Source of the DNA: a virus
Reading direction: 5' to 3' (one strand)
IMG/VR virus record: IMGVR_UViG_3300025858_000002
DNA length: 49,385 nucleotides
Part shown: positions 2,010 through 18,738 of the stretch, in pieces
Numbering within the stretch: the stretch's first letter is position 1
Layout: every line of letters begins with the position of its first letter
Notes under the pieces: model-generated
The model's database searches: none
Told to the model about the DNA's origin: nothing
What the model saw: the letters and a program-made list of their open reading frames with translations, nothing else
Position numbers and translations under genes: made by a program

Positions 2010-2014
2010 GTTAC

Positions 2015-2072
2015 GGGGGCTGGGTTCATCATTCTTTTCCTTCCTTTTCCTCTAAAGAGGAAGCCCCCACCT
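2015..2072 (+). ncRNA. tRNA-like minihelix RNA (element Z): GGGGGCU/AGCCCCC terminal stem followed by ACCU
   Basis: A 7-bp perfect helix joins 2015-2021 and 2062-2068. Hairpin UCCUC-UAAA-GAGGA (2048-2061) abuts its 3' strand. The interior has a CU-rich tract. The element ends 14 nt before ATG 2086, just ahead of SD AAGGA. Confidence 0.45.
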
Positions 2073-2085
2073 ATAAGGATAAAAT

Positions 2086-3104: not shown

Positions 3105-3115
3105 TCTTCATCCTT

Positions 3116-3322: not shown

Positions 3323-3807
3323 AAGTTATATTCCTCTTTCCTTCTTTTTATTATTCCATCATTCTTTTTATCTTTAACCTTTCTATAAGTTAAAATTTTA
3401 GAACAATTCATACTACCTTGTTTGTTAATAAATACTTTGGCTTTATTACCACCAAGATTGTATTCTAGTGATGCATATACGGCGTATTGTGCCATATTTA
3501 ACGTTTTAGGCACCTTATTCCAAACATTGGCGTGTAAGTAAGCTACCATACGCTTTTCTGCTTGTACGCGGCTTATATTGCGTTCTCCTGGTATTTCTGT
3601 TTTACCATTTGGTCCATAAGGTAGAATCCAGCCATAAGATCCTGTTCCGTATCCTATTGACCATCTGCCGCCTGGGCAGAGGTATGAATATGATCTATAA
3701 TCCTCTAAGGATTTTATAAATTCTACAGCAAATTTTTGTTTCGCTGAAATTGGTGGCTCTGGGGAAGGTTCCCTTATAGCACATCCTAATGCTAGGATGC
3801 CTAACAA
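3289..3807 (-). CDS. Lysozyme-family endolysin (GH24-like)
   Basis: FIKSLEDYRSYSYLCPGGRWSIGYGTG resembles the E...Y.D..G..TIGYG lysozyme core. The N-terminus LGILALGCA looks like a signal or lipobox. No in-frame ATG, so a TTG start at 3807 is inferred. Confidence 0.6.
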   Translation of the reverse strand: MLGILALGCAIREPSPEPPISAKQKFAVEFIKSLEDYRSYSYLCPGGRWSIGYGTGSYGWILPYGPNGKTEIPGERNISRVQAEKRMVAYLHANVWNKVPKTLNMAQYAVYASLEYNLGGNKAKVFINKQGSMNCSKILTYRKVKDKKNDGIIKRRKEEYNLCLKTTLQQSY

Positions 3808-3843
3808 AGTCTTATAAAAGTTTGAAATGGTTAATTCTCTTAG

Positions 3844-3963
3844 TTAGAACTTTACCCAAATCCCTGCTACAGTTTTTACATACCGTGCGTTCTTATAGAT
3901 AAAGTCTGTTACTCCATAAGTTTGTTCAATATACTCACCTAAAAAGTTAATACCTAATTTCAT
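3844..3963 (-). CDS. Hypothetical small protein (39 aa)
   Basis: Own translation MKLGINFLGEYIEQTYGVTDFIYKNARYVKTVAGIWVKF. It fills the gap between 3965..4255 and the lysozyme gene. Confidence 0.35.
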   Translation of the reverse strand: MKLGINFLGEYIEQTYGVTDFIYKNARYVKTVAGIWVKF

Positions 3964-3964
3964 T

Positions 3965-4255
3965 TTACACCTCTTTTTCGTTTAAATCAATTTTTTTCCA
4001 AAAGTTCTTTGCACTTGGTCTATCGTTGTAATGGTTCCAATTTGCTATAGAAGCATCTCTAGATGAGCCTAGAAATTCATAAGGATCCCAACAATCACAA
4101 GTTTTTGTTATAGATGGACAAAATAATCCATTCTTGTCTGTATATTCTTTTGTCTTATATCTACCGTGGCATTGTGTATAGTACATATCCATTAACTTAA
4201 CAGTTATAGGTAAGTTTCCACACTTTTTACACGGCACAGGTTTTTCTTTATTCAT
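3965..4255 (-). CDS. Hypothetical Cys-rich (zinc-ribbon-like) protein
   Basis: ORF track. CKKCGN...C...C.C pattern. Start/stop junction with the upstream gene. Confidence 0.5.
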   Translation of the reverse strand: MNKEKPVPCKKCGNLPITVKLMDMYYTQCHGRYKTKEYTDKNGLFCPSITKTCDCWDPYEFLGSSRDASIANWNHYNDRPSAKNFWKKIDLNEKEV

Positions 4256-4602
4256 TATTCATTTCCTTCTAACAATCTTTTTAATGTTTTCCACTTATTA
4301 CTTGTGAATAGATAATTTAAAGTATTGTATTCATTATCTAACTTTATATGGAGTTCATTCCAAAAAACTATCGTTTCATAGAAGTTTTCCCGTGTGTAAT
4401 CCAAAAACTCTATTGATTGTTCCTCAGTAATAAGCTTTACTTTTTCCTGCCAAGCTAAGAATTGTATATCATACCCTAATTGGTCTTCTAGTTGTTCTAA
4501 ACTAGTTTCACAACAATACCTAGCAAAATGTACAATTTCTCGACGTTTATAAAATAACTCAGTTATTTCAGAAATATCGATTATACATTCTTTATCAATC
4601 AT
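4255..4602 (-). CDS. Hypothetical protein
   Basis: ORF track. Overlaps both neighbours within the same-strand operon. Confidence 0.5.
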   Translation of the reverse strand: MIDKECIIDISEITELFYKRREIVHFARYCCETSLEQLEDQLGYDIQFLAWQEKVKLITEEQSIEFLDYTRENFYETIVFWNELHIKLDNEYNTLNYLFTSNKWKTLKRLLEGNE

Positions 4603-4982
4603 AGTATATTATCTTTAATCTTTTGTAGTTGGTCTTCAAAATACTCAGCTCTTGTAATACCCCGCGTTATACACAAAGATAATAAGTTTCTATTAGCTAG
4701 CTGTCTTAATTCGTCCATCAGCGTTTCTGATACTGCTGGTTTCAATTTACCGGCGTGTATTGCCGCGTGACATTCTGCACAAACAGGATATAAGTTAGGC
4801 AAATAGAATCTTGTTAAAGGATTAGATCGAGGAATTATATGATGTATATGTTCAGCTGGTCTTACTATATATCTTTCTGCACAAGATCTACAAAGTCTAT
4901 TGTGACGTAACTGAGGATATAGTTTATCACACCGATCATAGACTTTTTGTTCGTCATTTACGGCTAATCTTTTATATCGCAT
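4599..4982 (-). CDS. HNH endonuclease
   Basis: CRSC...HIHHIIPRSN...CAECHAAIH is a classic HNH layout. Confidence 0.75.
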   Translation of the reverse strand: MRYKRLAVNDEQKVYDRCDKLYPQLRHNRLCRSCAERYIVRPAEHIHHIIPRSNPLTRFYLPNLYPVCAECHAAIHAGKLKPAVSETLMDELRQLANRNLLSLCITRGITRAEYFEDQLQKIKDNIL

Positions 4983-4998
4983 AATAATCTCTTAAATT

Positions 4999-5079
4999 TG
5001 GTGGCGGTGTGATTCAGAGGAGAGAGAAAGTAGGAAGGGAGTCCGAATCATTTATAATTGTAGTCAAACAATCACCGCC
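4999..5079 (-). ncRNA. tRNA-like minihelix RNA (element A): GGCGGUG/CACCGCC stem followed by ACCA
   Basis: On the minus strand a 7-bp perfect helix joins 5079-5073 and 5009-5003, followed by A-CCA (5002-4999). A 6-bp helix UGAUUC/GAAUCA (5050-5045 with 5015-5010) abuts it and closes a 29-nt CU-rich loop. There is no anticodon arm. Confidence 0.5.
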
Positions 5080-5086
5080 GTAAACC

Positions 5087-5431
5087 TTAGAATGGAATAT
5101 CATCACCAAAATTTGTATTAGAACGAGCTATATCCGCACCTTCTGGCGAGGTAAAGCTTTTGAGTTCAAAATTAGTAAAATATTTTCCTGTTGAACTTTG
5201 GGATGTTGTAATGTTAACAGTTGCTTTTACCCTATCACCTGCTCTAAGCATTCTTGCCGTTTCTTCCAAGAATTTAGGTACTCTACAAGTTAATACTGCT
5301 TCTTTTGGACCAAACTTAGTTTCTGATTTGTGGCAAATAATTAACTCACGGAACATAAAGTTACCGTTTGATGTCTGACGTTCTGTTTGTGTATTTTTTA
5401 ATACTTCAAATGTTTCTGTTACTGTTAGCAT
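5087..5431 (-). CDS. ssb: Single-stranded DNA-binding protein
   Basis: OB-fold-sized protein ending in the acidic SSB tip GDDIPF. Confidence 0.7.
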   Translation of the reverse strand: MLTVTETFEVLKNTQTERQTSNGNFMFRELIICHKSETKFGPKEAVLTCRVPKFLEETARMLRAGDRVKATVNITTSQSSTGKYFTNFELKSFTSPEGADIARSNTNFGDDIPF

Positions 5432-5434
5432 ATT

Positions 5435-5725
5435 TTATCCTAATTTTATAAATGTTTTTGTTGTGTATTGTGGTTCCTCGTATTGGAAGGATTCCACATC
5501 TCCTATTGTAAAAAAGTCGCTTATTTCTTGCAAGGACTTTCTTATCAATTCGTATTTATCCTTATCTAGGTTAACCTCTCTGCAGAGGAATAGATAAGAA
5601 TGTAGCACAGCTAAGAATACATCTAAGCCCTGCTCTGTTGATTTTTCCAATCCTAGTTGTTTTCTACCAGAATTGAAGTTTTGGGCAAACAGTTCTCTAT
5701 TTACCGGTGGTACTATATGTCGCAT
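5435..5725 (-). CDS. Hypothetical protein
   Basis: ORF track. Tightly packed within the recombination module. Confidence 0.5.
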   Translation of the reverse strand: MRHIVPPVNRELFAQNFNSGRKQLGLEKSTEQGLDVFLAVLHSYLFLCREVNLDKDKYELIRKSLQEISDFFTIGDVESFQYEEPQYTTKTFIKLG

Positions 5726-6309
5726 ATTTCTTTTACCTTTTGTATATTTTCCACTAGGGAAGCTCTTATCTCTTCTATCTTTTCTTCATCTCTTTCTACG
5801 ACATCAATTTCCATTGGGAACCTAGGGTGATATACAATATAGTAGCATTTCTGCCGCTCAGTAACCATCAGATTGAATTGAACTTGAGTCCTATAAATAG
5901 GTGGTATTTTCTTTGTTTTAAGGTATTTCATAAACTCCTTTAGTTGAAGGCATTTAATTTCAATAATGGAATCATCACCTACTAGACCATCTGGACTACA
6001 ACCTACCCAACCAGCAAATTCGTTATCACAATCTACAAAACCTACTTCTTTAACGTCTAGATCAGTAGTTGCCATAAATAACCTACGAGCTTCTGGTTCG
6101 AGGAGATTTCCCCGTTCCATAGCTCTAGACTTGTATTCATCATCATCTGTATCCTGGATAATTCTTTCCCCTGCTAGACCATACAAACGGTCTTTCTTAG
6201 TTTCCGAATCCCCTAACATAACGTGATAATTACTACCAGTGAATTTGCCTAGCCTAATTTGCTTCCATTCATCAGTTCCTTGAATGATATTATAATGAGG
6301 CTTTGGCAT
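5713..6309 (-). CDS. YqaJ/lambda-Exo-like recombination exonuclease
   Basis: GTDEWKQIRLGKFTGSNYHVMLG plus the D...IIEIKC motif. Confidence 0.8.
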   Translation of the reverse strand: MPKPHYNIIQGTDEWKQIRLGKFTGSNYHVMLGDSETKKDRLYGLAGERIIQDTDDDEYKSRAMERGNLLEPEARRLFMATTDLDVKEVGFVDCDNEFAGWVGCSPDGLVGDDSIIEIKCLQLKEFMKYLKTKKIPPIYRTQVQFNLMVTERQKCYYIVYHPRFPMEIDVVERDEEKIEEIRASLVENIQKVKEICDI

Positions 6310-6577
6310 CTTTATCTTCTCCTAATAGCAATTTCATAAGTTTATCATTTGGAACATTATCCATAAGGCGTTTGGAAAATACTGCAGCTGCTGGAACAAT
6401 CAATTCTTTTTCCCTATCTTCCATTACGGCAGGACGTTTACCACCTGTAGTTTCTATAAAGTCCATCATAAACATATCTAACCAAACAGTTGTTGCTTGA
6501 ATTAGAATTTTAGTTATTGCTTTATGTTCCTTTGAGAATTCTGGGTGCTTTTCAAATAAATCTTCTACAAACGACAT
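6290..6577 (-). CDS. Hypothetical protein
   Basis: ORF track. Overlaps both neighbours. Confidence 0.5.
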   Translation of the reverse strand: MSFVEDLFEKHPEFSKEHKAITKILIQATTVWLDMFMMDFIETTGGKRPAVMEDREKELIVPAAAVFSKRLMDNVPNDKLMKLLLGEDKDAKASL

Positions 6578-7137
6578 TATTTATCCTCCATTTGTTTTAC
6601 TTTCTTATCAATTAAGGTTTGTGCCTTTGTTGCGGTTAATTGTGCAAGATCTGTTATTTGCAACAATTCCAACAACTTAGCAACGTTTGTGTTTTCTTCA
6701 AGCCATTTTCTTTGTTCTGCTGTAATCATAAGCTCTTTATTGCCCATTGTGCCTGCTGTGGAGTCAAACAAGTCTGGTGCTACAATATCGAAAGCCATTA
6801 GCAATAAATAGCGGCGTTGATAAGTTTCTACACCACCTAAAGCCTGTATAGCATTAGAACCAGGAATTGCAATTTCTTTCATTGGTGAAGTGAAAGTTAC
6901 ACTTTTATCTGTATCTTCAATATCAAAAACAGTCATTGTAGCAAATTCACTAGAAAACCTTGTTTGGAGATAGACCCCGTATTTATTACAAAGTTGTGTT
7001 ACCGCTGGTATGATATCTTCTAATTGGAAATATTCAAACTTAGCGTGTGTATTATGTCCAGACTTACCTAACTTAGTGTTAAGTAATTCCGTTTTTATTA
7101 GATTCATCTTCTGATATATATTCATCTTTTCTGTCAT
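6577..7137 (-). CDS. erf: ERF-family single-strand annealing protein
   Basis: MNIYQKMNLIKTEL...KSGHNTHAKFEYFQLEDIIPAV matches the ERF N-terminal signature. Confidence 0.75.
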   Translation of the reverse strand: MTEKMNIYQKMNLIKTELLNTKLGKSGHNTHAKFEYFQLEDIIPAVTQLCNKYGVYLQTRFSSEFATMTVFDIEDTDKSVTFTSPMKEIAIPGSNAIQALGGVETYQRRYLLLMAFDIVAPDLFDSTAGTMGNKELMITAEQRKWLEENTNVAKLLELLQITDLAQLTATKAQTLIDKKVKQMEDK

Positions 7138-7309
7138 TTCTTATCCTTTTATTTAATTTGCACTTTTGGTTTAATTAGACCTTTACTATGAATGGTACAA
7201 ACCATATCAACTGGGGTGCAATATTAGATCTCTTGACTCTTACGAGCATTAAACCCAATTAGTCCGGAAAGTGCGAACGAACTTCAAAGGAGGCATACAC
7301 CCCAACCTC
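7138..7309 (-). ncRNA. Structured intergenic RNA (element E)
   Basis: Long-range helix UGGGGUG/CACCCCA joins 7304-7298 and 7218-7212. GNRA hairpin CUC-GUAA-GAG. Hairpin AUGGU-UUGU-ACCAU. No ORF. Confidence 0.3.
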
Positions 7310-7777
7310 TTAGTTGCCATTTACGGCACGTTCAAACATAACCTTTGTAGCTTCTTCTTTCGTTAACAGTTCTTTATCGTGAACAACCAATGATAAAGCT
7401 CCGTTATCCAGACGGATTACTTCATAGATTCTTTTTTCTGGTTCTTTCTTTTCTACTCTGTACGTTGGTAAAGTAGTTAGTTCAGTTGGTGCTTCAATAG
7501 GTTTAACTTCCTTTGCCCCTTCTATAATGAATTTTGGTTCAAACAATTTAGAAGAGAAAACCGGCAATGTTGGGTATGATCTGTTTCTATAATTTGAAAT
7601 GTTAGTATTTATAGCAGCTTTGATATCGCTAAAAGCCTTTTCTGGTACACCAGACTTAGCAGTACACATACCCTCTATAACCAATCTGTTTATTGTTCCA
7701 GCAGGGGTAAAAGGCAATTCTAACCAGTAGAAAAACTTGGTACCTCTGATGTGTTTGTAGTTTACAATTATTTTCAT
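7310..7777 (-). CDS. Hypothetical protein
   Basis: ORF track. No motif recognised. Confidence 0.5.
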   Translation of the reverse strand: MKIIVNYKHIRGTKFFYWLELPFTPAGTINRLVIEGMCTAKSGVPEKAFSDIKAAINTNISNYRNRSYPTLPVFSSKLFEPKFIIEGAKEVKPIEAPTELTTLPTYRVEKKEPEKRIYEVIRLDNGALSLVVHDKELLTKEEATKVMFERAVNGN

Positions 7778-7792
7778 TCTTTTTCCTTTTTG

Positions 7793-8578
7793 TTAAAATA
7801 AAGCATTTAGCTTTATTGGTTTGTTCGAGTATAAACGCTCGATGCCTTTCTTTTTATTTAATGCCCCACCCCCTTCATTCCATTTAGAGAATTCAGCCAC
7901 TAAATAAAACTCTTTTGGCATAGAATATTCAGATATTAAAACAACATTATCCTGTTCTAATGCCCATTTATAAAATGTATCGTGATCAAACTTTCCAGAC
8001 TTATAACCGTGCTTCCCAGCGTAAGGTGGATCACAATATATCAACCAACCTTTAGGTACATCAAAGTCACTATAAGACCCTTCTATAAATTCTAGGTCTA
8101 GATTAACTCTTGAATGTAGTAGTATTATATCTTCTATATGTGAATATCTTTGATTGGGCTCAGCTTTGCCAGCTAAGAATTCAGCTATTTTTTTATCTTC
8201 TTTAGACTTTGCACAAAGATAAGTACCACCTTGATTTGAGAATGACCACATAGATCTTATCATTGCTCCAATATAAGTATCATCTTTCTTCATAATATTA
8301 AATTCATCTCTGGTAATAGGTATATCTTTGTATTGCTTTACCCATTCTGGGAACTGTTTACAATGTCTATGTAGATCAATCACACCAGATTCTATATCGT
8401 TAGCAACCACTTTAAACCCCTTTTGAGCCATATAATATGCAAAAGATCCACCACCAGTAAATGCATCATAAATACCTATAGGCTTATCTATATCTAGATT
8501 CCTAATGGTTTCGTATAATTCATCTAGTATTCCTGCTTTATTTCCAAGATAGGGGATACGAGGTTCTAATTCAGACAT
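7793..8578 (-). CDS. Dam-like N6-adenine DNA methyltransferase (D12 class)
   Basis: FTGGGSF (motif I) and IYCDPPY (motif IV). ATG 8578 is preferred to the TTG at 8590 used by the ORF track. Confidence 0.8.
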   Translation of the reverse strand: MSELEPRIPYLGNKAGILDELYETIRNLDIDKPIGIYDAFTGGGSFAYYMAQKGFKVVANDIESGVIDLHRHCKQFPEWVKQYKDIPITRDEFNIMKKDDTYIGAMIRSMWSFSNQGGTYLCAKSKEDKKIAEFLAGKAEPNQRYSHIEDIILLHSRVNLDLEFIEGSYSDFDVPKGWLIYCDPPYAGKHGYKSGKFDHDTFYKWALEQDNVVLISEYSMPKEFYLVAEFSKWNEGGGALNKKKGIERLYSNKPIKLNALF

Positions 8579-8723
8579 TTTTATTCTCAAGGTTTTTTCT
8601 ACGGTATTTGTTTTGGTTTTTTCTTATAGTTTCTGCACGATTTTGACATTTAATTAAATAATCATAATCATCTTTACAGATAGTAACAAACTCTTTACTT
8701 TTCTTTACTGGTTCTATTATCAT
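8571..8723 (-). CDS. Hypothetical small basic protein (50 aa)
   Basis: Own translation MIIEPVKKSKEFVTICKDDYDYLIKCQNRAE.... ATGA overlap with the upstream gene. Confidence 0.4.
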   Translation of the reverse strand: MIIEPVKKSKEFVTICKDDYDYLIKCQNRAETIRKNQNKYRRKNLENKNV

Positions 8724-8902
8724 ATATCTACTCTTTTAATATCTTTATTTAACATATCTTTTAGACAAGTTTTATTACATCTAATAGTTGTAGTGGGATT
8801 TTGGAAAACAAATAACTTTAATTGGGAATTATATCCTGCATACTGGTACGTATTTCCATATATTTCATATAAACCAAACGGTTTTAAATCAGTCAACTTC
8901 AC
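8720..8902 (-). CDS. Hypothetical protein
   Basis: ORF track. Overlaps the helicase gene end. Confidence 0.5.
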   Translation of the reverse strand: MKLTDLKPFGLYEIYGNTYQYAGYNSQLKLFVFQNPTTTIRCNKTCLKDMLNKDIKRVDI

Positions 8903-9818
8903 TATACTCTCCTATTTCAAATTGTTTACTAGCTTTAAGTAATTGTTGTTTATTCAAGCCATCTACTACATAGCCACTAGCATCAAAGTCCTTTATTTCC
9001 TTAAAGTATCTTTCATACTTACCATTACACCAAAACAATCTGCCCATTGCTAAGTGTCCGTATCTATCTTTTCTAATAGCCATCAAAGTAGCTTTTCTTT
9101 CTTCTGTATCAAAGAAAGGATCTCTTGCAAGGGTTATAACAATAGTAGCAACATCTGCCTTTTGTGAACCACCTTTCAAATCATACATACCAGGTATTAA
9201 ACAAGTAGCTGGTAGGTCTTTACGTATCTGGGAAAAGGTAATTATGCAAACGTTTTTTTGGAAAGCTAGATTAGCTAGTTGTTTCATAGCATATCTAATA
9301 AACTGTAAATCGGCAGTTTGGTCATTAGAAACGTGATCTATATGGTCAATAATTATCAATTTTTTACCTATTGAGATATATTTTTCTACTTCTCTTAATA
9401 AAGTTTTTAGGTCTTGAACACCATCCGTAGATTCTATTAAAGAAAACATAGGAACATCCCCACCAGATAACTTACCAAATAGTTCATCTAGGCAGGTGGT
9501 ATATTTCTCATATTTAGTCGGGTTTCTTGAAAAGTCTGTCAGAAATTGACGGTAATTATTTTTATCTTGGGGATTTGCGGATTTGTATTCAGTGAAAACT
9601 GCTTGTCTTAGAAAGTCGCCTTTTGCGTTCTCTAATGAGAAAAGAGATGTAGGTATATCTTGCTCGGTGGCAGTCTTTGCAATAGTATTTGCAAATGTAG
9701 TTTTACCGGAACCCGACATAGCCGCAAACATAATTAAATCACCGCTACATATTCCTGTGAGGTTTACATCTAAAAATGGGATGCCCCAACTACCAAGCCT
9801 TTCCATACTCAACTCCAA
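8889..9818 (-). CDS. DnaB-C-terminal/RecA-fold ATPase (replicative helicase-like)
   Basis: Walker A AAMSGSGKTT and Walker B LIIIDHIDHV. Confidence 0.55.
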   Translation of the reverse strand: MELSMERLGSWGIPFLDVNLTGICSGDLIMFAAMSGSGKTTFANTIAKTATEQDIPTSLFSLENAKGDFLRQAVFTEYKSANPQDKNNYRQFLTDFSRNPTKYEKYTTCLDELFGKLSGGDVPMFSLIESTDGVQDLKTLLREVEKYISIGKKLIIIDHIDHVSNDQTADLQFIRYAMKQLANLAFQKNVCIITFSQIRKDLPATCLIPGMYDLKGGSQKADVATIVITLARDPFFDTEERKATLMAIRKDRYGHLAMGRLFWCNGKYERYFKEIKDFDASGYVVDGLNKQQLLKASKQFEIGEYSEVD

Positions 9819-9860
9819 CCGATTCGTTTTTACTATACTACAAACTTTTAGGATTGCAAA

Positions 9861-10208
9861 TTATTTTTTTAGCCTGCTTTTTAGTAAGGCTTCCTTGGCT
9901 TTATATAGTCCTAAATCACCCTTAAAGTAGATATCACCACCATCTGAGAACCCTTGGTAACGCGAATCTATTGCAAACAAGACAGCATCTATTGCATAGA
10001 GCCAACAGTCCTCCGATAGGATCTTTAACTCTTTAGCTTTTCTTAAACGACCTGCATCTGTATAAGGGGGGATAAGGTCACCATCACGTCTTGTTCTATA
10101 CTTTTCAAAGTACTTAACAAGAGATAGATAATCGCCTGGTGTTATTTCACTTGGATCCATTGGAACATCAATAGATTCTAGTAGAGCTAGAACATCTTTC
10201 TTTTTCAT
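9861..10208 (-). CDS. Hypothetical protein
   Basis: ORF track. SD AAAGGA upstream. Confidence 0.5.
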   Translation of the reverse strand: MKKKDVLALLESIDVPMDPSEITPGDYLSLVKYFEKYRTRRDGDLIPPYTDAGRLRKAKELKILSEDCWLYAIDAVLFAIDSRYQGFSDGGDIYFKGDLGLYKAKEALLKSRLKK

Positions 10209-10220
10209 ATTTAATCCTTT

Positions 10221-10410
10221 TGGTGAGGCTGACCAGCAACTTGGATTTCAATGGTCATTTAACGGTAGCGACACCGGGGGTATGAACCCCGTCTAGCCAG
10301 CGGACCGGAAGCCCAGTCCACACCTTTTCCGCACCTCAAAACTGGCGGGGACCGATAACCTTGCGGGGTCACTAAGACACTCCTAGGATGGTCAATCTAA
10401 ATTCGTCCCC
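10221..10410 (-). ncRNA. GC-rich structured RNA (elements B2/B3)
   Basis: A sampled 60-nt line is about 65% GC, against about 32% in flanking genes. No ORF. GGGGAC/GUCCCC helix followed by G-CCA. T-arm-like hairpin CGGGG-UUCAUAC-CCCCG. The 3' end reads GCCUC-ACCA just before SD AAAGGA. Confidence 0.4.
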
Positions 10411-10415
10411 ATAAC

Positions 10416-10461
10416 TGGTGGGCAGGATACAGACGATTTCTACCTGTATAGCAACTGCCCA
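10416..10461 (-). ncRNA. tRNA-Tyr acceptor-mimic minihelix (element B1)
   Basis: Minus strand reads GGGCAG-UUGCU-AUACAG-GUAGAAAUCGU-CUGUAU-C-CUGCCC-ACCA. Plus-strand 12-mer ctggtgggcagg (10415-10426) is identical to the tRNA-Tyr 3' end (14077-14088). Confidence 0.5.
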
Positions 10462-10466
10462 TAAAC

Positions 10467-10670
10467 TTATCTTGTTTTATAAGATTGTAATACTTCAATA
10501 ACACGCCAACTTGGAAATTTCTCAACTTTAACATCTACTTGGTCTTGTGTTTTAATTTCAACACGTACACCTTTCCAAACATTATCACTGATTTGTCCAA
10601 GGGTATAAACCTTGTATTGTTTACTTTCCATCACTGGTGTTAATTTAGATAAATCATATTTCTGTATCAT
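10467..10670 (-). CDS. Hypothetical protein
   Basis: ORF track. Confidence 0.5.
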   Translation of the reverse strand: MIQKYDLSKLTPVMESKQYKVYTLGQISDNVWKGVRVEIKTQDQVDVKVEKFPSWRVIEVLQSYKTR

Positions 10671-10936
10671 TTTTTACTCCTAGTTTTTCTATCCAATTTT
10701 TCGTAGAAATTCTGCCAATAAAAAGCTTCCGCTAATTCTCTTTCTGAAGTTAAACAAAGACTTCTTATAGATTTTATTACTTTGATTGCTTCTTTGCTTG
10801 GCTTTTTGTTATTTGATGGATTAAAATTAAATCTAATTGTAATAAATAAAAGCCATAAAACTAACTCATATTTTGAGATACCAAATCCTATAGCAAATTT
10901 TAATAAACGTCTAGAAGATTGCATATTTATGTGCAT
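10667..10936 (-). CDS. Hypothetical protein (N-terminal hydrophobic segment)
   Basis: ORF track. ATGA overlap with the downstream gene. Confidence 0.45.
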   Translation of the reverse strand: MHINMQSSRRLLKFAIGFGISKYELVLWLLFITIRFNFNPSNNKKPSKEAIKVIKSIRSLCLTSERELAEAFYWQNFYEKLDRKTRSKK

Positions 10937-10939
10937 CTA

Positions 10940-11116
10940 TTATTCCTTTATTTTAATAACTTTACAATCAACATATTCCCACGCAATTACATCTGGTGCC
11001 GATTTCCAATATATACAATCGTGATAATCATCAGATAATTCTGTTATTTCCATTGGACAAAATGTTATTCTTTTTACATATTTGTCGCCTATTTTCAAAT
11101 AATATCTAAAAGCCAT
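10940..11116 (-). CDS. Hypothetical small protein (58 aa)
   Basis: Own translation MAFRYYLKIGDKYVKRITFCPMEITELSDDYHDCIYWK.... It fills an otherwise empty gap. Confidence 0.4.
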   Translation of the reverse strand: MAFRYYLKIGDKYVKRITFCPMEITELSDDYHDCIYWKSAPDVIAWEYVDCKVIKIKE

Positions 11117-11119
11117 AAC

Positions 11120-11323
11120 TCACTCCACTATTATTGTATCCCGCTTTACTGGGATTATTTCTGTTTCTTTTGGGTCAAGTAATATATAAGCACAGTGTCT
11201 TGCATACCATTTATATTTATACCATTTAGCAAATTCTATATTTTCTTGCCAGCCAAGATACCAACCTGTCCAATATAGTCCTGTATTTTTAATTCTAATA
11301 ACCCAATACACTTTATCTTTCAT
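11120..11323 (-). CDS. Hypothetical protein
   Basis: ORF track. Confidence 0.5.
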   Translation of the reverse strand: MKDKVYWVIRIKNTGLYWTGWYLGWQENIEFAKWYKYKWYARHCAYILLDPKETEIIPVKRDTIIVE

Positions 11324-11345
11324 ATCTATTCCTTTTATAAATTAC

Positions 11346-11534
11346 TCAGTGAATCAACATTTCAAATTCACGATTCATAAAATTAACACACCATTTATAA
11401 TCAATACCATTATTAGGTGGATTTTCAATAGAAGCCAATGCAGTCATATAACCTAAAACAAATGTAAACGAATTACTCTCTAACATTTTATGTATTAACA
11501 TTGTTTCGCTATTTTGATTTTGCCAAGGTATCAT
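11346..11534 (-). CDS. Hypothetical protein
   Basis: ORF track. Confidence 0.45.
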   Translation of the reverse strand: MIPWQNQNSETMLIHKMLESNSFTFVLGYMTALASIENPPNNGIDYKWCVNFMNREFEMLIH

Positions 11535-11655
11535 ATTGTTCTCCTAATATTTCAAGAGCTTCAACTGCAATAACCCATCTCTGGGCTCCTGCACCAGTTC
11601 CTACAATAGATTTTAACGCCGCTAAAGCAATCTTATATTTTTCTTCATAGGTCAT
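11509..11655 (-). CDS. Hypothetical small protein (48 aa)
   Basis: Own translation MTYEEKYKIALAALKSIVGTGAGAQRWVIAVEALEILGEQYDTLAKSK. Confidence 0.4.
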   Translation of the reverse strand: MTYEEKYKIALAALKSIVGTGAGAQRWVIAVEALEILGEQYDTLAKSK

Positions 11656-11657
11656 AT

Positions 11658-12083
11658 TTAGTTTCCTTCAAATAACGTTAATTGATGCGATGCCTGTTTC
11701 TGCCAGTCCTGTTTAAACTGTACACAATCTTTAACTTCTGTTATGAATAGAGTTTCTGCACTCATTCTAACAACTCTAGCTGCTCTAGTCCAAACAAACC
11801 TTTCACAGGGTATTTGACCACGTAGAAACCATCTACCCTTATTAGTCACTACCCACTCACCATTATCTTCTTTCCGTAGGGGTATCGCAAGTCCAAAATA
11901 ACGAAGCTTTTGAAAGTTTGTGTATTCTGTTTTGTTTTGTATTAGCTGGTTAAGGTTAGCTTGCTTATTAGGCGTATTGTATAGGTCTACAAGTCCTTTT
12001 ATTAAAACTTTAGTTAGCCCGTGTTTATATTCTGTAGGTATTCTAAGACCACAGCAAGGGCAATACTCTGGTTCTTTCTTCAT
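11658..12083 (-). CDS. Hypothetical protein with N-terminal CPCC zinc knuckle
   Basis: Start taken at MKKEPEYCPCCG, with SD AAAGGA upstream. Its C-terminal 45 aa has a truncated paralogue at 12747..12923. Confidence 0.5.
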   Translation of the reverse strand: MKKEPEYCPCCGLRIPTEYKHGLTKVLIKGLVDLYNTPNKQANLNQLIQNKTEYTNFQKLRYFGLAIPLRKEDNGEWVVTNKGRWFLRGQIPCERFVWTRAARVVRMSAETLFITEVKDCVQFKQDWQKQASHQLTLFEGN

Positions 12084-12188
12084 CTTATATCCTTTTATCT
12101 TTCTTAATAGAATCTTTACCCGCTGAATAACCCATCCAATAATTAAGCTGGCACATACCAATGTATAATAAAAGTAATGTTATGTCAT

Positions 12189-12734
12189 TCATTTCTTATC
12201 CTTTTTACATATCTCTTTTGCAGATGCTACCCAAATTGCTAAAAACACTAAACATCCAACTGTTATTGTTGTTGTAGTCGTGTATGTTGTCCACAGATAT
12301 ATTATTCCTGCACCTACGGCTATTACTGCAAAAGAAAATAACAAAATAGCTACTGGGTTTGTTAAAGACATTAGTCTTAATTTAAACTTACTGGTATGTA
12401 TATCTAAAACCCCTCTTTCTGAGTTTCCAATAGCACTTTCTCTTCCAAACAATATTTGTAGATATCTCTTATAGGTAATTTTTTTGCCAAGATATTCTTC
12501 ATATGAAGATAATTTTCTAACACTTATTGATAAACAAAAACCAATCACAAACAAAACCATAAGCCCCATAATAACAAACATTATATGAACTGGGAGCATT
12601 GGATAGAAAGTCATACTTAAGTATTCTATCCCTGTGACAAGCCCAAATCCTAGACCAAGCAAAAGAAACGTTCCAAGAGTCAAAAATATAATCCATCCAA
12701 TTATCACGAAAAAAGCTTTTAAATAACATCTCAT
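12189..12734 (-). CDS. Multi-pass membrane protein
   Basis: At least four hydrophobic helices in the ORF-track translation. Confidence 0.55.
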   Translation of the reverse strand: MRCYLKAFFVIIGWIIFLTLGTFLLLGLGFGLVTGIEYLSMTFYPMLPVHIMFVIMGLMVLFVIGFCLSISVRKLSSYEEYLGKKITYKRYLQILFGRESAIGNSERGVLDIHTSKFKLRLMSLTNPVAILLFSFAVIAVGAGIIYLWTTYTTTTTITVGCLVFLAIWVASAKEICKKDKK

Positions 12735-12746
12735 AATTCTATCCTT

Positions 12747-12923
12747 TTATTTACTATTTTCTGCAATTAAATCTAATAAATTAGTCATTGCTGCCTGTTC
12801 GCGCCATTCTTGTTTATATTGAACACAATCTTTTATATCAGATATTCCAACAATTTCACTGCTATATCTGGTAACTTGTGCCTGTCTGGTCCAGACAAAT
12901 TGTGATACTTTTATTTCTTTCTT
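12747..12923 (-). pseudogene. Orphan C-terminal fragment paralogous to the 11658..12083 product
   Basis: Own translation QFVWTRQAQVTRYSSEIVGISDIKDCVQYKQEWREQAA aligns with RFVWTRAARVVRMSAETLFITEVKDCVQFKQDWQKQAS. The frame opens only after a TGA inside the methyltransferase gene end and has no start codon. Confidence 0.5.
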
Positions 12924-13411
12924 TCAACAACACATATTGTGTCATTATGAGCTCCCCCGTGAGGAACAAGCAAAACTTCAACTATTTCAAATCCATATTT
13001 ATTACCAACACCACCAGACGACCATCCAAACGATATTACATAACCCCCTGTTTTCACTATTCTTTGCAATTCTGGTCTAGACTTAGTCATAGGGTTAGAT
13101 TGTGTGTCTTGTGTGGTGCAACTACCTCTCACTTTTCTATAAACTTCCGATAGCTGTCTTAATGAGTATGGAGGGTCAAATAAAACGCAATCAACTGATT
13201 CATTATCAAATCTTTTAAGAAACTCTAAGTAATCTAGATGGTTATCAGCAGAAGTATTCGGGTCAATGTCGTTAGTTACATCTGCAATTTTACAATCTTT
13301 TGCAAACGGGTCTATTATAAAACCTATTTTGTAATTATTTATTAGGTCTTTTATGGGTTTAATTGTAAAAGTTAGAGAATTTGGCATCGCCCATATTCTA
13401 TTTATTTTCAT
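12911..13411 (-). CDS. Small DNA methyltransferase (N6-A or N4-C type)
   Basis: IIDPFA (motif I-like) and LFDPPYS (motif IV). Confidence 0.7.
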   Translation of the reverse strand: MKINRIWAMPNSLTFTIKPIKDLINNYKIGFIIDPFAKDCKIADVTNDIDPNTSADNHLDYLEFLKRFDNESVDCVLFDPPYSLRQLSEVYRKVRGSCTTQDTQSNPMTKSRPELQRIVKTGGYVISFGWSSGGVGNKYGFEIVEVLLVPHGGAHNDTICVVERKK

Positions 13412-13791
13412 AACTCTACTCCTTTATCTGTATTTATATTGCCGATGATTTCAATATCTGTGGCTTGTGTATATATTTTATCTAGGCTTGCTAAATATAT
13501 TACTTCATCTGAATTTATAGACTCATATCTTACCCCAAAATAATCAACGCCAATACGAAAATCCCCTTTGTTATCTATATGAACAACATCCCCTTCATAA
13601 ATCAGTATCCCGTTTTTATCTTTTAATCCTGTGCATTGTTCAGCAGTAAATCGTCCCGCAAGGGTTAGCATATTATATAAATCTAATTGAATTGATTTGT
13701 CGGCATTCCAAGTATGCGTAGTGTTATCAAATGGTGCATATCTTTGCAAATCATTATCCCAAAATCTAAACTTAAATCTTTCATTATTCAT
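13408..13791 (-). CDS. YopX-like protein
   Basis: KFRFWD...GLKDKNGILIYEGDVV pattern. Confidence 0.55.
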   Translation of the reverse strand: MNNERFKFRFWDNDLQRYAPFDNTTHTWNADKSIQLDLYNMLTLAGRFTAEQCTGLKDKNGILIYEGDVVHIDNKGDFRIGVDYFGVRYESINSDEVIYLASLDKIYTQATDIEIIGNINTDKGVEL

Positions 13792-13802
13792 AATCTATCC
13801 TT

Positions 13803-14057
13803 TTATTTTATAAAACACATAAAACCCAAAATAGCAATAATTATCCAGATTATTTGAAAATCTCTTAACTTTGCCATTTGTGTTATTGTTTTATCTTGTT
13901 CTGCTAATCTTTTAGCTTCTTCTTTTGTATAAATACCATTGTCAATATCCCAAAGCAATTCTCGTAGATACGCAATTCTGTATTCTCTTTTCATACAATC
14001 TTTTGTAAAAGTATACTTATGTGTTGCAGAAGCATATTCAAACGGTACATTACTCAT
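13803..14057 (-). CDS. Hypothetical protein with C-terminal transmembrane helix
   Basis: ORF track. C-terminus IIWIIIAILGFMCFI. Confidence 0.5.
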   Translation of the reverse strand: MSNVPFEYASATHKYTFTKDCMKREYRIAYLRELLWDIDNGIYTKEEAKRLAEQDKTITQMAKLRDFQIIWIIIAILGFMCFIK

Positions 14058-14077
14058 ATCTCTATCCTTTTATAATC

Positions 14078-14162
14078 TGGTGGGCAGGGCTGGATTTGAA
14101 CCAACGAACTCTGAGAGAACAGATTTACAGTCTGCCTGCTTTAACCTCTTGCATACCTACCC
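14078..14162 (-). tRNA. tRNA-Tyr (anticodon GUA), class II, CCA encoded
   Basis: Hand-folded cloverleaf. Acceptor GGGUAGG/CCUGCCC. D stem UGC/GCA with a GG loop. Anticodon arm GCAGA-CUGUAAA-UCUGU. 13-nt variable arm. T arm GUUGG-UUCAAAU-CCAGC. Ends A-CCA. Confidence 0.9.
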
Positions 14163-14168
14163 ATAATT

Positions 14169-14280
14169 TGGTGGGGATTTCGTAAGGCGTATATCTCTCT
14201 TTCAAGATACTTTATATTGCTTACCCTTTATTTCAAGGCACGATGTCATTATTCATCACTCACGCCACCCTATTATCCCC
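14169..14280 (-). ncRNA. tRNA-like RNA (element C), 6 nt upstream of tRNA-Tyr
   Basis: Terminal helix GGGGAU/AUCCCC joins 14280-14275 and 14178-14173, then A-CCA (14172-14169). Internal hairpins CCUU-GAAAUA-AAGG and AUCU-UGAAAGAG-AGAU. No cloverleaf. Confidence 0.4.
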
Positions 14281-14415
14281 ATAAAGTGCCAGACACTCTC
14301 TGGCGGGAGACCGCTATCAGGTATTTTAACGAGTTATAGCTGCTCTCGTCTATTTTCGCAGGTCGAGCATAGATACTCGGAACTCTCATCGTTCAGCACA
14401 AACCCGACTATCTGC
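14281..14415 (-). ncRNA. Structured non-coding spacer
   Basis: No ORF. Hairpins CCAGA-GAGUG-UCUGG, GCGG-UCUC-CCGC and CGAG-UAUCUAUG-CUCG. Confidence 0.3.
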
Positions 14416-14715
14416 TTATTTAGCAGAATCTTGTTTAATACTCACTTTTATATTCTGTTCAGCATTTCCATAAACGGCATTTGGCATAATCATTTTTTCA
14501 TATAATTCCATTGGAATCATTTTACCATCTTTTTCTGCATAGCAGTCTGTATAATAAGACCAATTAGTCTTCGTGTTATACAAATCAGCTTTTTTGTGGC
14601 AGGCAGGTCTATCAATAACAATACCCCAAAAAGATATTATTGCAAATATTGCTAAAAATATTCCAAATATTACTCCAAAAAACAATAGAATTGGGTGGTC
14701 ATTTATATCAAACAT
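14416..14715 (-). CDS. Membrane-anchored hypothetical protein
   Basis: N-terminal transmembrane segment ILLFFGVIFGIFLAIFAIISFWGIV. SD AAAGGA upstream. Confidence 0.55.
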   Translation of the reverse strand: MFDINDHPILLFFGVIFGIFLAIFAIISFWGIVIDRPACHKKADLYNTKTNWSYYTDCYAEKDGKMIPMELYEKMIMPNAVYGNAEQNIKVSIKQDSAK

Positions 14716-14863
14716 TTTATTTCCTTTTTGTTTTAAAAGCTAGATATAGCAGTTGCTTTCACATCTCTTTTACTAGACGCTATACTCAAAACTTCTGGAA
14801 AGCGTATGCCTCGCACGGATTTATCATCTTTGTATATCTCTACATACGCACTCTCCAAAACTT

Positions 14864-15001
14864 TTACATACTAATCAGTTTATAAATAAACGGTATGCAG
14901 AACAATAAACTTGCTAATAACTTACCAATAAAATTATCAGCTGTTAGTCTTAATACGTTTGTCCCTAAACAAATAGTTAATATGATTGCATAAGTTAACA
15001 T
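14864..15001 (-). CDS. Hypothetical small membrane protein (45 aa)
   Basis: Own translation MLTYAIILTICLGTNVLRLTADNFIGKLLASLLFCIPFIYKLISM. SD AAGGA upstream. Confidence 0.4.
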   Translation of the reverse strand: MLTYAIILTICLGTNVLRLTADNFIGKLLASLLFCIPFIYKLISM

Positions 15002-15018
15002 CTTTTATATCCTTATAT

Positions 15019-15145
15019 TGGTGGGGCGGAAGCCGCGATTCTTAGATAGCGATTGCACTTCTGCTATGACTAGAACGTTTGTTTTATTATGCAAAACTAG
15101 CGAGTCGCCTTATTCCTGTCAATATCCTTGCGGGATATAAGCCCC
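15019..15145 (-). ncRNA. tRNA-like RNA (element D) with internal copy of the downstream SD
   Basis: Terminal helix GGGGC/GCCCC joins 15145-15141 and 15027-15023, then A-CCA. Hairpin AUAUCC-CGCAA-GGAUAU. The 8-mer atatcctt occurs at both 15122-15129 (internal) and 15007-15014 (SD of the next ORF). Confidence 0.4.
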
Positions 15146-15387
15146 AAAACTACTAAGCAGAGAGATAATCAAAAAGACTATCTCTCTACGGTTCACACGG
15201 TCAACCCGTGACTAACTTATGGTTGTTAGGCTTCCATATAGCCGGTTATATTGCATCATAGATCGCAACAGGTATAAATAGGTTGTCCGTTTTGGAATCT
15301 TTCAATCTCTATCGTATATCGTTCTGTAATCTTGATTACTATGAATTAACTAACCCATACTCCCGACCATTAAATCGGGAGCCTGCA
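15146..15387 (-). ncRNA. Structured non-coding spacer
   Basis: No ORF longer than 15 codons. Hairpins CUCCCGA-UUUAAUGG-UCGGGAG (15381-15360), AGAGAGAUA/UAUCUCUCU (15187-15159), CACGG-GUUGA-CCGUG and GUAAUC-AA-GAUUAC. Confidence 0.3.
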
Positions 15388-15843
15388 TTAGTCTTCCAAT
15401 GCTGATTCTGGATCTTCTTCCAACGCTTTAATCTGAGCTACCAAAGCAGAGATACCTGCTTTTTGTGAACCCTTAGCAATTTTCAGAACTTCACCAACAT
15501 CTTTTGCACCTTTGACTTCGTCCATACGTTCGTGCAAGGCAGACATCAAACGTTTGGTTTTTGCAGCAACGGCTTTGAAGATATTATAGTTTTTAATATC
15601 AACTTTACCGATGGTCAATGGGATATCAGAAATCTGAGTACCACCATTTTCTGCTTTAATATACTCATATTCTGCATAAACTTCTTTCACTTTGAAATAA
15701 GCCAGCTTGCTATGAGCCCAGACAGAAAAGATATCGCCCTTAGCAACTTCTTTTTCACTTGTTGCATAAAAACGAAATTCTTTTGAATCCGGTTCGTCTT
15801 TGGTATGAGATACCAAGACACCTTTTAAGATTAAGACTTTCAT
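15388..15843 (-). CDS. Hypothetical protein (first gene downstream of the ribozyme)
   Basis: ORF track. SD AAGGAG upstream. Visibly higher GC than its neighbours. Confidence 0.55.
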   Translation of the reverse strand: MKVLILKGVLVSHTKDEPDSKEFRFYATSEKEVAKGDIFSVWAHSKLAYFKVKEVYAEYEYIKAENGGTQISDIPLTIGKVDIKNYNIFKAVAAKTKRLMSALHERMDEVKGAKDVGEVLKIAKGSQKAGISALVAQIKALEEDPESALED

Positions 15844-15866
15844 TCATTTCTCCTTTTTTATGATTA

Positions 15867-15934
15867 GACTAGTCTCATCAGTAGCATAGGAGTCACCTAT
15901 ACTAGACCGGCATTATACCGGTTTCGACAAATGA
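15867..15934 (-). ncRNA. Type II hammerhead self-cleaving ribozyme
   Basis: Minus strand reads UUUGUC-GAAA-CCGG(UAUAAUG)CCGG-UC^UAGUAUAGG(UGACU)CCUAUGCUA-CUGAUGA-GAC-UAGUC. All core nucleotides are present (CUGAUGA, G10.1-C11.1, GAAA, A15.1-U16.1, C17). Stem I is 9 bp and stem III 5 bp, and stem II is open. Confidence 0.85.
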
Positions 15935-17137
15935 TTACAATGGCAATTCGTTTTCATTTGCTGGGTCTTCCATATCTAAATCTTTCATAAATTCATCTAT
16001 GAAATCATCTACATATGAATCAAATGTATAATACATAACTGACCTTTCTTGAGCATCTTTACCAGGTTTAATGTTCTGTACCAAGAAATCTACTAAGGAT
16101 TCTGTTGATACTTCTTTACCAGCCTTAATAAGTCTTTGAACAGCATTACATACTGCATAATGAGCGTGAATTTGTTCTTCAACTTCTGTTCTAGCATCTT
16201 TTGTCTTATACCCCTTAGACAGATACTTATTCAATAAGATATTTCTTTTGAATTGAAATTCTTTTAATACGCTATGTATCTCATCTTTTTTGTCGTATGT
16301 TTTATTTGGCAATTTTTCATCAGGCATTATAGATGGGTCTAGAAAATACAAACCTTTCTTTGATAAACAAAGTTTTGTTCCATATTCATAAACAGGTATC
16401 TTTACACGAGATGTTGCATATATCCAAACTCCCTGTTGTTTATCATACAACCCAAATTCTTTATGAAATTTCTTTGTAGAAAAGTTAATTTGCGGCTTGA
16501 ATTCAGAGTCAGGCTTTGGCAAGAAGTTATACCCTTTATGACCATAACCATCATCAAGATCATCATATTTGTTATAGTTATAGTTCTTAGGATAAGAATA
16601 AATTTTAGGTTTAAAAGCTCCAGAATTGGAAAACCAAGCACCATCTTTTTCTTCTCCTAATCTCTTATTGAGAATAAGAATTTCGCCAGTTACATTATCC
16701 ATAATAGCAAACTTAGACGTTCCAAGATATGCTTCTAATAATGCCTGATATTTCTTAACCCAAGTAATATCTTTATCGTGCAAATATGTATCACCAAATG
16801 TTTCAGAATCAGTTTTTCCTTCTGTTGGTGTGATAGCCAATGTCCCGTTATGGGCTAAACTAATTCTATTATAGATAAATGGGTGTGTGTTTTCTGGCTT
16901 AACTTCACCCTTTGATGCAATTCTAAAATGAGCAACAAATGAAGTATTTTTTTCGTTAACTAATTCTAACATACCGAGAAAATCTTCTTTAACCATCATA
17001 CCTTTTTTAAACTTTGTAGGTTTGCCATCTTCTTTAAAGATAACACCACCGCCTTGAGGGTTTGCTTCCCAAGCTCTTTTAAAATATTCTTTATCCAACG
17101 GATCAACTCCAGCTGGCTTCGCAATAATAATGCACAT
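15935..17137 (-). CDS. Class-II (Ntn, Cys2) glutamine-amidotransferase-like protein with about 200-aa C-terminal extension
   Basis: MCIIIAKPAG (nucleophile Cys directly after Met), HFRIASKG, NTHPF and LAHNGTL. Confidence 0.7.
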   Translation of the reverse strand: MCIIIAKPAGVDPLDKEYFKRAWEANPQGGGVIFKEDGKPTKFKKGMMVKEDFLGMLELVNEKNTSFVAHFRIASKGEVKPENTHPFIYNRISLAHNGTLAITPTEGKTDSETFGDTYLHDKDITWVKKYQALLEAYLGTSKFAIMDNVTGEILILNKRLGEEKDGAWFSNSGAFKPKIYSYPKNYNYNKYDDLDDGYGHKGYNFLPKPDSEFKPQINFSTKKFHKEFGLYDKQQGVWIYATSRVKIPVYEYGTKLCLSKKGLYFLDPSIMPDEKLPNKTYDKKDEIHSVLKEFQFKRNILLNKYLSKGYKTKDARTEVEEQIHAHYAVCNAVQRLIKAGKEVSTESLVDFLVQNIKPGKDAQERSVMYYTFDSYVDDFIDEFMKDLDMEDPANENELPL

Positions 17138-18727: not shown

Positions 18728-18738
18728 AATTTACTCCT

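Follow-up and report, generated by a model that had tools for sequence, protein, structure and literature searches.

The IMG/VR record IMGVR_UViG_3300025858_000002, analysed over its whole length of 49,385 nucleotides (nt) and referred to below as the window, is the complete or near-complete genome of an uncultivated phage; identical 49.4-kb contigs are found in JGI sample 3300010352 and in an ENA assembly (ERZ27257449). The minus strand encodes the early genes, between about positions 2376 and 23072, among them those for ERF, YqaJ, a DnaB-like helicase, methyltransferases, YopX and an HNH endonuclease as well as two amidoligase-like proteins and one GATase_4-like protein; the plus strand carries the structural genes. 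Scattered among the spacers of this 49-kb genome are at least seven small RNA structures, here called units, that are not tRNAs and whose ends resemble those of tRNA precursors (Table 1). Judging by gene orientation, units A, B1, C and D are sense to the early region and unit Z is sense to the late region.

The units are 45-127 nt long, have interiors unlike that of a tRNA, and are closed by a terminal helix whose 3' strand is followed by a purine discriminator (R73) and CCA in A, B1, B2, B3, C and D, and by A-CCU in Z. The original prediction, made from the letters of the window alone, had listed Z, A, B1, C and D, all of which are present where it placed them, with the single correction that the first nucleotide (G+1) of B1 is 10460, 10461 being the U at -1. 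It had also expected tRNA-finding programs to call tRNA-Tyr and nothing else, and this was the outcome: ARAGORN found no other tRNA in the window, and Rfam, searched at gathering score and, for positions 1900-16100, at E<=10, returned only tRNA-Tyr and a weak match to freshwater-2.

Table 1. Features of the window and corresponding sites in related phages. L numbers denote loci of related phages; an arrow marks the predicted cut site.
Feature	Position	Strand	Description
Z	2015..2072	+	GGGGGCU/AGCCCCC-ACCU; leader GUUAC; 6-bp hairpin abutting the 3' strand
A	4999..5079	-	GGCGGUG/CACCGCC-ACCA; leader GUUUAC; trailer AAUUUAAG
E1	7212..7303	-	GGGGUG/CACCCC-A, then GUUGAUAU, without CCA; borderline, not counted as a unit
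B3	10221..10337	-	GAGGU/GCCUC-ACCA, 5-bp helix including one G-U; closes a multi-hairpin RNA; probable
B2	10343..10410	-	GGGGAC/GUCCCC-GCCA; 13-bp coaxial stack; new, absent from the original prediction
B1	10416..10460	-	GGGCAG/CUGCCC-ACCA; 45-nt minihelix
tRNA-Tyr (GUA)	14078..14162	-	Genuine; ACCA encoded; leader AUUAU; trailer GAUUAU
C	14169..14280	-	GGGGAU/AUCCCC-ACCA; 112-nt multi-hairpin RNA; leader CUUUAU
D	15019..15145	-	GGGGC/GCCCC-ACCA; 127 nt; leader GUUUU
Hammerhead core, type II	15872..15928	-	GUC-GAAA-stem III-C↓U-stem I-CUGAUGA-GAC; between the 400-aa and 151-aa genes
B1-type arrangement in a 5' untranslated region (5' UTR)	L005 9870-10010, L020 12240-12386, L021 12180-12334, L160 12085-12204		
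B1-type 5'-UTR arrangement, further loci	L019 12760-12895, L157 5200-5334, L071 8440-8560		
Hammerhead in relatives, examples	L003 11195-11280, L006 11098-11150, L019 11388-11454		
Hammerhead in relatives, further examples	L020 11190-11244, L021 11136-11188, L157 3950-4016		

Start codons with a Shine-Dalgarno (SD) sequence follow the tails of Z, A and D at 13, 16 and 17 nt, respectively, within the distance of about 20 nt that had been claimed; the gene behind A encodes the HNH endonuclease, and a promoter-like TTGACC-16-GATAGT starts about 59 nt upstream of G+1 of D. Z, the sole site with an RCCN tail in the late-region spacers, has a CU-rich interior, and the loop of A is CU-rich as well. 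B1 is preceded by a stop codon and then the leader GUUUAU, and it opens a tandem array with 5-nt spacers, B1-GUUAU-B2-GUUUU-B3, that ends 12 nt ahead of the SD sequence and AUG of a gene for a protein of 115 amino acids (aa). The termini of B3 are paired in the centroid fold; its helix is weak (three G-C pairs) and there is a competing GGCU/AGCC pairing. C is separated from the genuine tRNA-Tyr by the 6-nt spacer AAUUAU. The borderline element E1 exposes in its interior CCUCCUUU, which we take to match the anti-SD end of 16S rRNA, and is followed by a second small helix (GGUUU..AAACC).

In minimum free energy folds the termini of every unit are paired and the 4-nt tail is free, a test that is not independent because the unit boundaries were picked to permit terminal pairing. 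Compared with shuffled sequences, A (z -6.7), C (-3.9) and B1 (-2.3) fold more stably. The helical stacks on the 3' strand amount to 12 base pairs (bp) in Z, 13 in B2, 14 in B1 (with a 1-nt bulge), 16 in A, 9 in D and 6 in C, and the units of related phages that lie in 5' UTRs have stacks of 6-9. The 12-13 bp minihelix with an abutting hairpin that had been described for Z, A and B1 is found in Z and B1, and in B2 also, but not in A with its stack of 16; C and D have no abutting hairpin. No intrinsic terminator was detected at the unit sites, where ACCA intervenes and the window trailers have only 2-3 U; promoter and terminator scans as a whole gave counts near those of shuffled sequence and were uninformative.

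Helices of at least 5 bp followed by NCCA were counted in the 3.15 kb of sense-strand intergenic sequence of the window and in 1000 dinucleotide shuffles. Six sites were observed against 0.70 +/- 0.83 in the shuffles. Under strict criteria, which add G+1, a pyrimidine at -1 (Y-1) and R73, there were again six sites, 0.047 being expected, and the antisense strand of the same spacers had none; the original contention that the elements exceed chance is therefore borne out. CCACCA occurs five times in the sense spacers (0.26 expected) and CC[AG]CCA eight times (0.57 expected). When the strict criteria were applied by eye to both strands of the whole window, only one extra site came to light, antisense in the late region.

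The cultured-phage collection contained no relatives of the window phage, and a single-protein scan of IMG/VR found nothing. Relatives were reached by alignment of the 400-aa GATase_4-like protein, whose homologues number more than 90, are 38-46% identical to it and often lie on contigs some 50 kb long, and by look-ups of the encoding contigs; about 15 distinct related loci were obtained in this way. The original prediction had looked to related phages for support, and the design does recur in them: with the strict, window-derived criteria fixed beforehand and left unchanged, 12 non-tRNA sites were found in 18.1 kb of sense spacers from 15 loci, against 0.65 +/- 0.77 expected and a shuffle maximum of 3. 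The antisense strand of these spacers yielded one site. This strand asymmetry (12 sense, 1 antisense), together with the one-sided CCA and variable spacing, rules out a palindrome acting at the DNA level. An attP-type copy of the 3' end of a host tRNA is ruled out by the presence of both helix strands and of many units, and the scanned proteins showed no integrase, which also counts against it.

The units of relatives occur in two contexts. Some are inside tRNA arrays (L003 14480-15130, L104 7118-7171, L159 15281-15337 and L160 13863-14176), and others lie 18-30 nt before a start codon (in L005, L019, L020, L021, L157, L158 and L160). Helix sequences are wholly different from unit to unit (for example GCGAGCGGUG, GCGGGCCU, GCGCGGGCUU and GGGGAC), and an nhmmer search of all window spacers against 17 related-phage loci aligned only tRNA-Tyr and the hammerhead. 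Because the helices differ and neither A, B2, B3, C nor D has a homologue in that search, and with interiors that are unrelated too, the units share a design and do not form one family, contrary to what had been proposed. Rfam had no match in the arrays of relatives. These arrays hold in addition an RNA motif of about 85 nt (L003 ~14540-14620, L164 ~7340-7440, L104 ~8125-8235, L159 ~15735-15825 and L160 ~14370-14458) in which one hairpin, (A/G)AGCGUGUCUACGCA, is invariant, the segments UAUAU and UGUUUG/UGAUUG are conserved and the closing helix covaries (GGAUAGGGC, GUGUGCC, GGGGC, GAACC); the motif lacks a CCA, matches no Rfam family and is not present in the window.

B1 does have syntenic counterparts, upstream of the replication module of seven relatives. 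They read GGGCAGG..CCUGCCC-ACCA or GGGCGG(CUG)../..CCGCCC-ACCA, in phages whose proteins are just 40-60% identical, for which reason we regard the ends of the B1-type element as conserved in sequence and not in pairing alone. A search of IMG/VR with the pattern GGGCAGG-N30-60-CCTGCCCACCA returned 79 stretches, by estimate about the number expected by chance, and was not used as evidence. The matches were mostly tRNAs or coding-looking G+C-rich sequence, just L071 and L092 were on contigs of relatives to which the GATase_4-like protein had led, and those AT-rich non-tRNA matches that were tested had no proteins in common with the window. A 14-mer scan of IMG/VR for the GCGUGUCUACGC motif led to the same phages again and to no others.

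The sequences flanking the units were tabulated for 21 non-tRNA units of the window and relatives and for 13 tRNAs that ARAGORN found in the same phages. Both groups share one signature, a UUAY↓G leader and a CCA-A(G/U)UUU trailer (the arrow in unit sequences, here and below, marks the unit boundary). Among the leaders of non-tRNA units, U-4, U-3 and A-2 are each present in 16/21, Y-1 in 20/21 and G+1 in 19/21; after CCA, A+1 is found in 14/21, U+4 in 18/21 and U+5 in 15/21, typically as AGUUU, AGAUU or AAUUAU. The discriminator is a purine in all 21 tabulated units; this count and that of Y-1 are not independent evidence, since most units were selected on these criteria. The tRNAs show the same tendencies (U-1 9/13, A+1 9/13, U+4 10/13). 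The UUAU leader is also present on units that no other unit precedes. Spacers within arrays measure 5-6 nt in the window, and when relatives are included, 5-8 nt separate units from the genuine tRNAs with which they form tandem arrays. With flanks like those of tRNAs, the non-tRNA units sit in the processing context of genuine tRNAs.

Another reading is that the units are decayed tRNA genes, functionless acceptor-end remnants in or near arrays. The 3' 12 nt of B1 (10416-10427) and of tRNA-Tyr (14078-14089), both on the minus strand, are indeed identical (CCUGCCCACCAG), the B1-type acceptor being that of tRNA-Tyr with U4 changed to C, and this identity may be the trace of a partial duplication or gene conversion; moreover, units occur in tRNA arrays and the sets of tRNAs vary among relatives. 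Decay nevertheless appears very improbable to us. No unit matches a tRNA model even at E<=10, the units measure 45-127 nt and their interiors are not those of tRNAs, and the only T-arm-like hairpin, weak and misplaced, is in B3. Helix strands, CCA and flanks are intact in many independent units, and the B1-type ends are invariant across phages with such divergent proteins, all of which argues for selection.

We prefer the reading, to which we give a probability of roughly 60%, that host RNase P would cut at G+1 of each unit, splitting early transcripts or releasing small RNAs. It is favoured because the units carry the full end signature of bacterial RNase P substrates: a single-stranded UUAY leader, a G+1 that opens a G-C-rich helix, a purine discriminator followed by CCA, and an A/U-rich trailer. 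In such substrates the CCA of RCCA pairs with the P15 loop (GGU) of RNase P RNA, U-1 contacts A248 and the protein subunit binds leader positions -8 to -3; hairpin model substrates are cleaved, and a single helix or coaxial stack with RCC(A/C) suffices for correct cleavage (PMC11143913). RNase P-type recognition had been among the mechanisms originally suggested, and the signature, with its UUAY↓G leader and A/U-rich trailer, is fuller than was seen then; that the RNAs are cut at all, what becomes of the pieces and what the phage would gain are matters of inference. No RNA-processing enzyme was detectable among the window-encoded proteins, and host enzymes would therefore have to act.

If host RNase P recognises the units, it would cut 5' of G+1 in polycistronic early transcripts. 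Within an array, either B1-B2-B3 or C-tRNA-Tyr, each unit would be left with a tail of 5-6 nt once the following one is cut. Trimming of this tail to CCA, by exonucleases or through cleavage of the AGUUU-like trailer by an RNase E-type enzyme, would yield discrete small RNAs. At the units before a ribosome-binding site (A, B3, D and Z), the cut would part the downstream cistron from the upstream message, and if the 3' side stays uncut, the downstream message would keep a base-paired, monophosphorylated 5' end.

Several observations weigh against the RNase P reading. Some apparent units end without CCA, namely E1 in the window and units of L160 and L159 that end in ACAA or A, so that CCA is not obligatory. 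B2, B3, D and Z fold no better than shuffled sequences (z -1.1 to -1.5), and the closing helices of C and D, merely 5-6 bp, lack a T-like stack. In the B1-type helix of relatives 5/7 pairs are invariant and one shows a compensatory change from A-U to G-C, which is near-invariance and not covariation. The scan criteria were derived from the window; the test on relatives is independent of it, but those phages are akin to the window phage and to each other. Finally, the only hints of a host are two binned contigs, one in a Clostridia and one in an 'Alphaproteobacteria' metagenome-assembled genome.

The missing CCA of some related units would be readily accommodated if all units were generic mRNA hairpins, that is, 5' stabilisers or sites for RNase E, RNase III or RNase Y in which CCA is incidental and RNase P plays no part. 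G-C-rich hairpins ahead of ribosome-binding sites often stabilise messages, the unit trailers resemble the RNase E consensus (reportedly RN↓WUU), and long hairpins between leader and interior in relatives, described below, could be RNase III sites like those of T7 early mRNAs. Generic hairpins would not be expected, however, to be accompanied by the excess of CCACCA and CC[AG]CCA, by the purine discriminator and Y-1 in nearly all units (counts that selection accounts for in part), or by flanks that are the same as those of tRNAs, and we hold this explanation to be quite improbable.

That this lineage cuts its own operon RNA is implied by a conserved intercistronic hammerhead ribozyme, which is cited as context and not counted among the units. 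It follows immediately on the GATase_4-like gene's stop codon, its predicted cut falls between 15905 and 15904, and it is conserved in place, with differing stem sequences, in all relatives examined except L104. Rfam hammerhead models gave no match, the only overlapping hit being a weak one to freshwater-2 (RF02980; 33.6 bits, E 0.054). The hammerhead noted in the original prediction is hence real and conserved in relatives, and it fits the idea, advanced there, of operons cut at defined RNA structures. Upstream of it, at 15935-19677 on the minus strand, are the genes of two Amidoligase_2-like proteins (312 and 450 aa) and of the GATase_4-like Ntn protein (400 aa), a trio kept in the equivalents of L019, L020 and L157-L160, which suggests a small-molecule or peptide ligation pathway.

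A different function for the excised RNAs is raised by the B1-type elements of relatives. The units might be C4-type regulators, so called after the C4 RNA of phage P1: antisense RNAs excised in a tRNA-end shell and activated by RNase P, whose loops pair with ribosome-binding sites, be it of the next gene downstream or of other messages of phage or host. This alternative bears on what the RNAs do and does not conflict with RNase P cleavage. In the seven relatives the B1-type element stands 35-50 nt past an extended -10 promoter in the 5' UTR of a replication-initiator gene, of which there are two or three non-homologous kinds, and its interior is strongly complementary to its own leader (z -2.9 to -5.2) through sequences that differ from phage to phage and covary. 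In four relatives a segment beside the 3' strand pairs with the downstream SD sequence, with matching changes on both sides (ACCUUCC:GGAAGGU, CCUAUCC:GGAUAGG, GACUAUCC:GGAUAGUC). GGGCAGG falls in the loop of the long leader:interior hairpin, which on geometric grounds would compete with the acceptor-like helix. The order of promoter, leader, element and SD sequence equals the annotated order in P1, where a1b1 precedes c4 and the a2b2 segment with the ribosome-binding site follows. A C4-like antisense role is thus well supported for the B1-type elements of relatives.

For the window units such a role is not supported. The interiors of A, Z and E1 are CU-rich and anti-SD-like, but anti-SD 5-mers are not enriched in the window relative to dinucleotide shuffles (p = 0.22), window units pair with the downstream initiation region no better than shuffled sequences do (the fraction at least as good being 0.17-0.74), and none pairs with its own leader (z -0.4 to +2.0). 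C and D have no obvious antisense loop, and the Rfam C4 model matches neither the window nor the L005 element. As a general account of the units, C4-type regulation therefore strikes us as unlikely.

A search with the 115-aa protein encoded downstream of B3 led to a 1.2-kb contig, whose homologue is 67% identical, and to a compact relative (L162); RNA clusters were absent from both. In L162 (3886-5031) the genes for the GATase-like, 151-aa, 115-aa and DnaB proteins are adjacent, and a gene for the RNA ligase RtcB directly follows that of DnaB. In the other relatives the tRNAs are mostly Asn, Gly, Tyr and His. The RtcB gene and this set of tRNAs may point to a conflict over tRNA cleavage. Within the window, the 176-nt 'spacer' at 12735-12910 on the minus strand contains a reading-frame fragment, ..IKDCVQYKQEWREQAAMTNLLD.., like the C-terminus of the neighbouring 167-aa open reading frame, ..VKDCVQFKQDWQKQASHQL.., and is probably the remnant of a duplicated gene and not an RNA element.

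A conflict of this kind would give a place to the idea that the units are decoys or substrates for tRNA-directed proteins, such as toxins that target the acceptor or CCA, the CCA-adding enzyme or aminoacyl-tRNA synthetases. The invariant GGGCRG/CYGCCC-ACCA acceptor of the B1-type elements suggests recognition of the sequence itself, and the bias of the phages' tRNAs and the RtcB of the compact relative can be read in the same sense. This evidence is circumstantial; the remaining units have unrelated helix sequences, and no partner toxin or enzyme was identified. Of all the explanations weighed here we find this one the hardest to credit.

Returning to RNase P, one extension of the preferred reading would unite the units with the C4-like elements of relatives: the tRNA-end shell may be a modular scaffold from which host RNase P would excise unrelated payloads, alongside C4-like switches timed by RNase P. 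We advance this tentatively and rate it as rather doubtful. If true, each genome would produce six to seven small RNAs; in the switches, loss of the complementary leader would free the anti-SD loop and turn the replication-initiator gene off, or on; and shell and hammerhead together would constitute a systematic RNA punctuation of phage operons, comparable with mitochondrial tRNA punctuation. A testable function would also be at hand for phage stable RNAs that have gone unexplained since T4 species 1 and 2. In any event the phage group offers a compact system for studying the minimal natural RNase P site, whether RNase P serves phages to segment and time their operons, and the roles of excised RNAs; its roughly 15 relatives allow natural comparison, with one syntenic element arranged like C4, and the genomes of other phages can be searched for similar units by means of the flank motif.

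The units would belong to a known kind, that of non-tRNA RNase P substrates or of phage stable RNAs. Bacterial RNase P has few substrates other than tRNAs, the known ones being 4.5S RNA, tmRNA, C4, M3 and a small number of mRNAs and riboswitches. Hairpin substrates such as the 4.5S precursor and acceptor/T-stem models are resembled by Z, B1, B2 and several units of relatives, with stacks of 10-16 bp; the units are not homologues of 4.5S RNA, and in many of them a helix of just 5-7 bp encloses a large interior that is unstructured or contains several hairpins. Plant mitochondrial t-elements, like the mitochondrial tRNA punctuation model, provide an analogy of logic only. There, tRNA-processing enzymes make use of tRNA-like structures between coding regions or next to them to form mRNA ends (PMC1920247); these systems are organellar, depend on RNase P together with RNase Z and have no encoded CCA.

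The original prediction considered T4 species 1 and 2 (rnaC and rnaD) the closest precedent, which holds in a loose sense: they are small non-tRNA RNAs set among the tRNAs of a phage array, with spacers a few nt long and A/U-rich trailers (AAAUUAU), rnaD has GCACC at its end with A and AAUUAU after it, and B1-B3 and C share the placement in arrays with short spacers. We know of no function assigned to the stable RNAs of T-even tRNA clusters in fifty years. In rnaC the T arm is canonical (GGGUUCGAAUCCC) and CCA is not encoded, whereas window units have no T arm beside the 3' strand, and nhmmer found no match between the units and rnaC or rnaD. In T4 these RNAs occur within the tRNA cluster alone, while A, D and Z are dispersed before ribosome-binding sites.

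C4 of P1 and P7 (RF01695; clan CL00128, which also includes c4-a1b1) is closer, with the same UUAU↓GG leader, a G-rich closing helix and an ACC tail. In P1 it reads ..GAAUUAU↓GGUGGGGCGUG..GUCCUGCC-ACC↓U GUUUGACAG, with ends AAUUAU↓GGUGGGG..CCUGCC-ACC↓U GUUU and a U-rich trailer, the Rfam consensus is uuuuAu↓GG...CC-aCC-cuu, and the P1 record gives the order promoters, a1, b1, C4 RNA (48343-48419), a2, b2 and icd. A mutation in the CCA homologue of C4 reportedly blocks its 5' maturation. Like several of our units, C4 lies directly upstream of a ribosome-binding site, and it is a proven RNase P substrate excised from a phage operon leader (Hartmann et al. 1995, as cited in PMC11143913). Membership of the units in the C4 family is rejected, as there is no sequence similarity and the C4 covariance model had no hit at E<=10 in the window or in L005 9800-10100, the P1 positive control scoring 68.8 bits. 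C4 further differs from our units in having a1/b1 and a2/b2 partners, of which none was detectable for the window units, and in preceding icd-ant; the genes downstream here concern replication, an HNH endonuclease or no known function, the full CCA is encoded, and a genome carries several unrelated units, some inside tRNA arrays. The likeness to C4 in presumed mode of action is nonetheless strong. The units are distinctive in how many of them a genome carries, in being dispersed before ribosome-binding sites, in having so clean a flank signature and in recurring throughout a group of phages.

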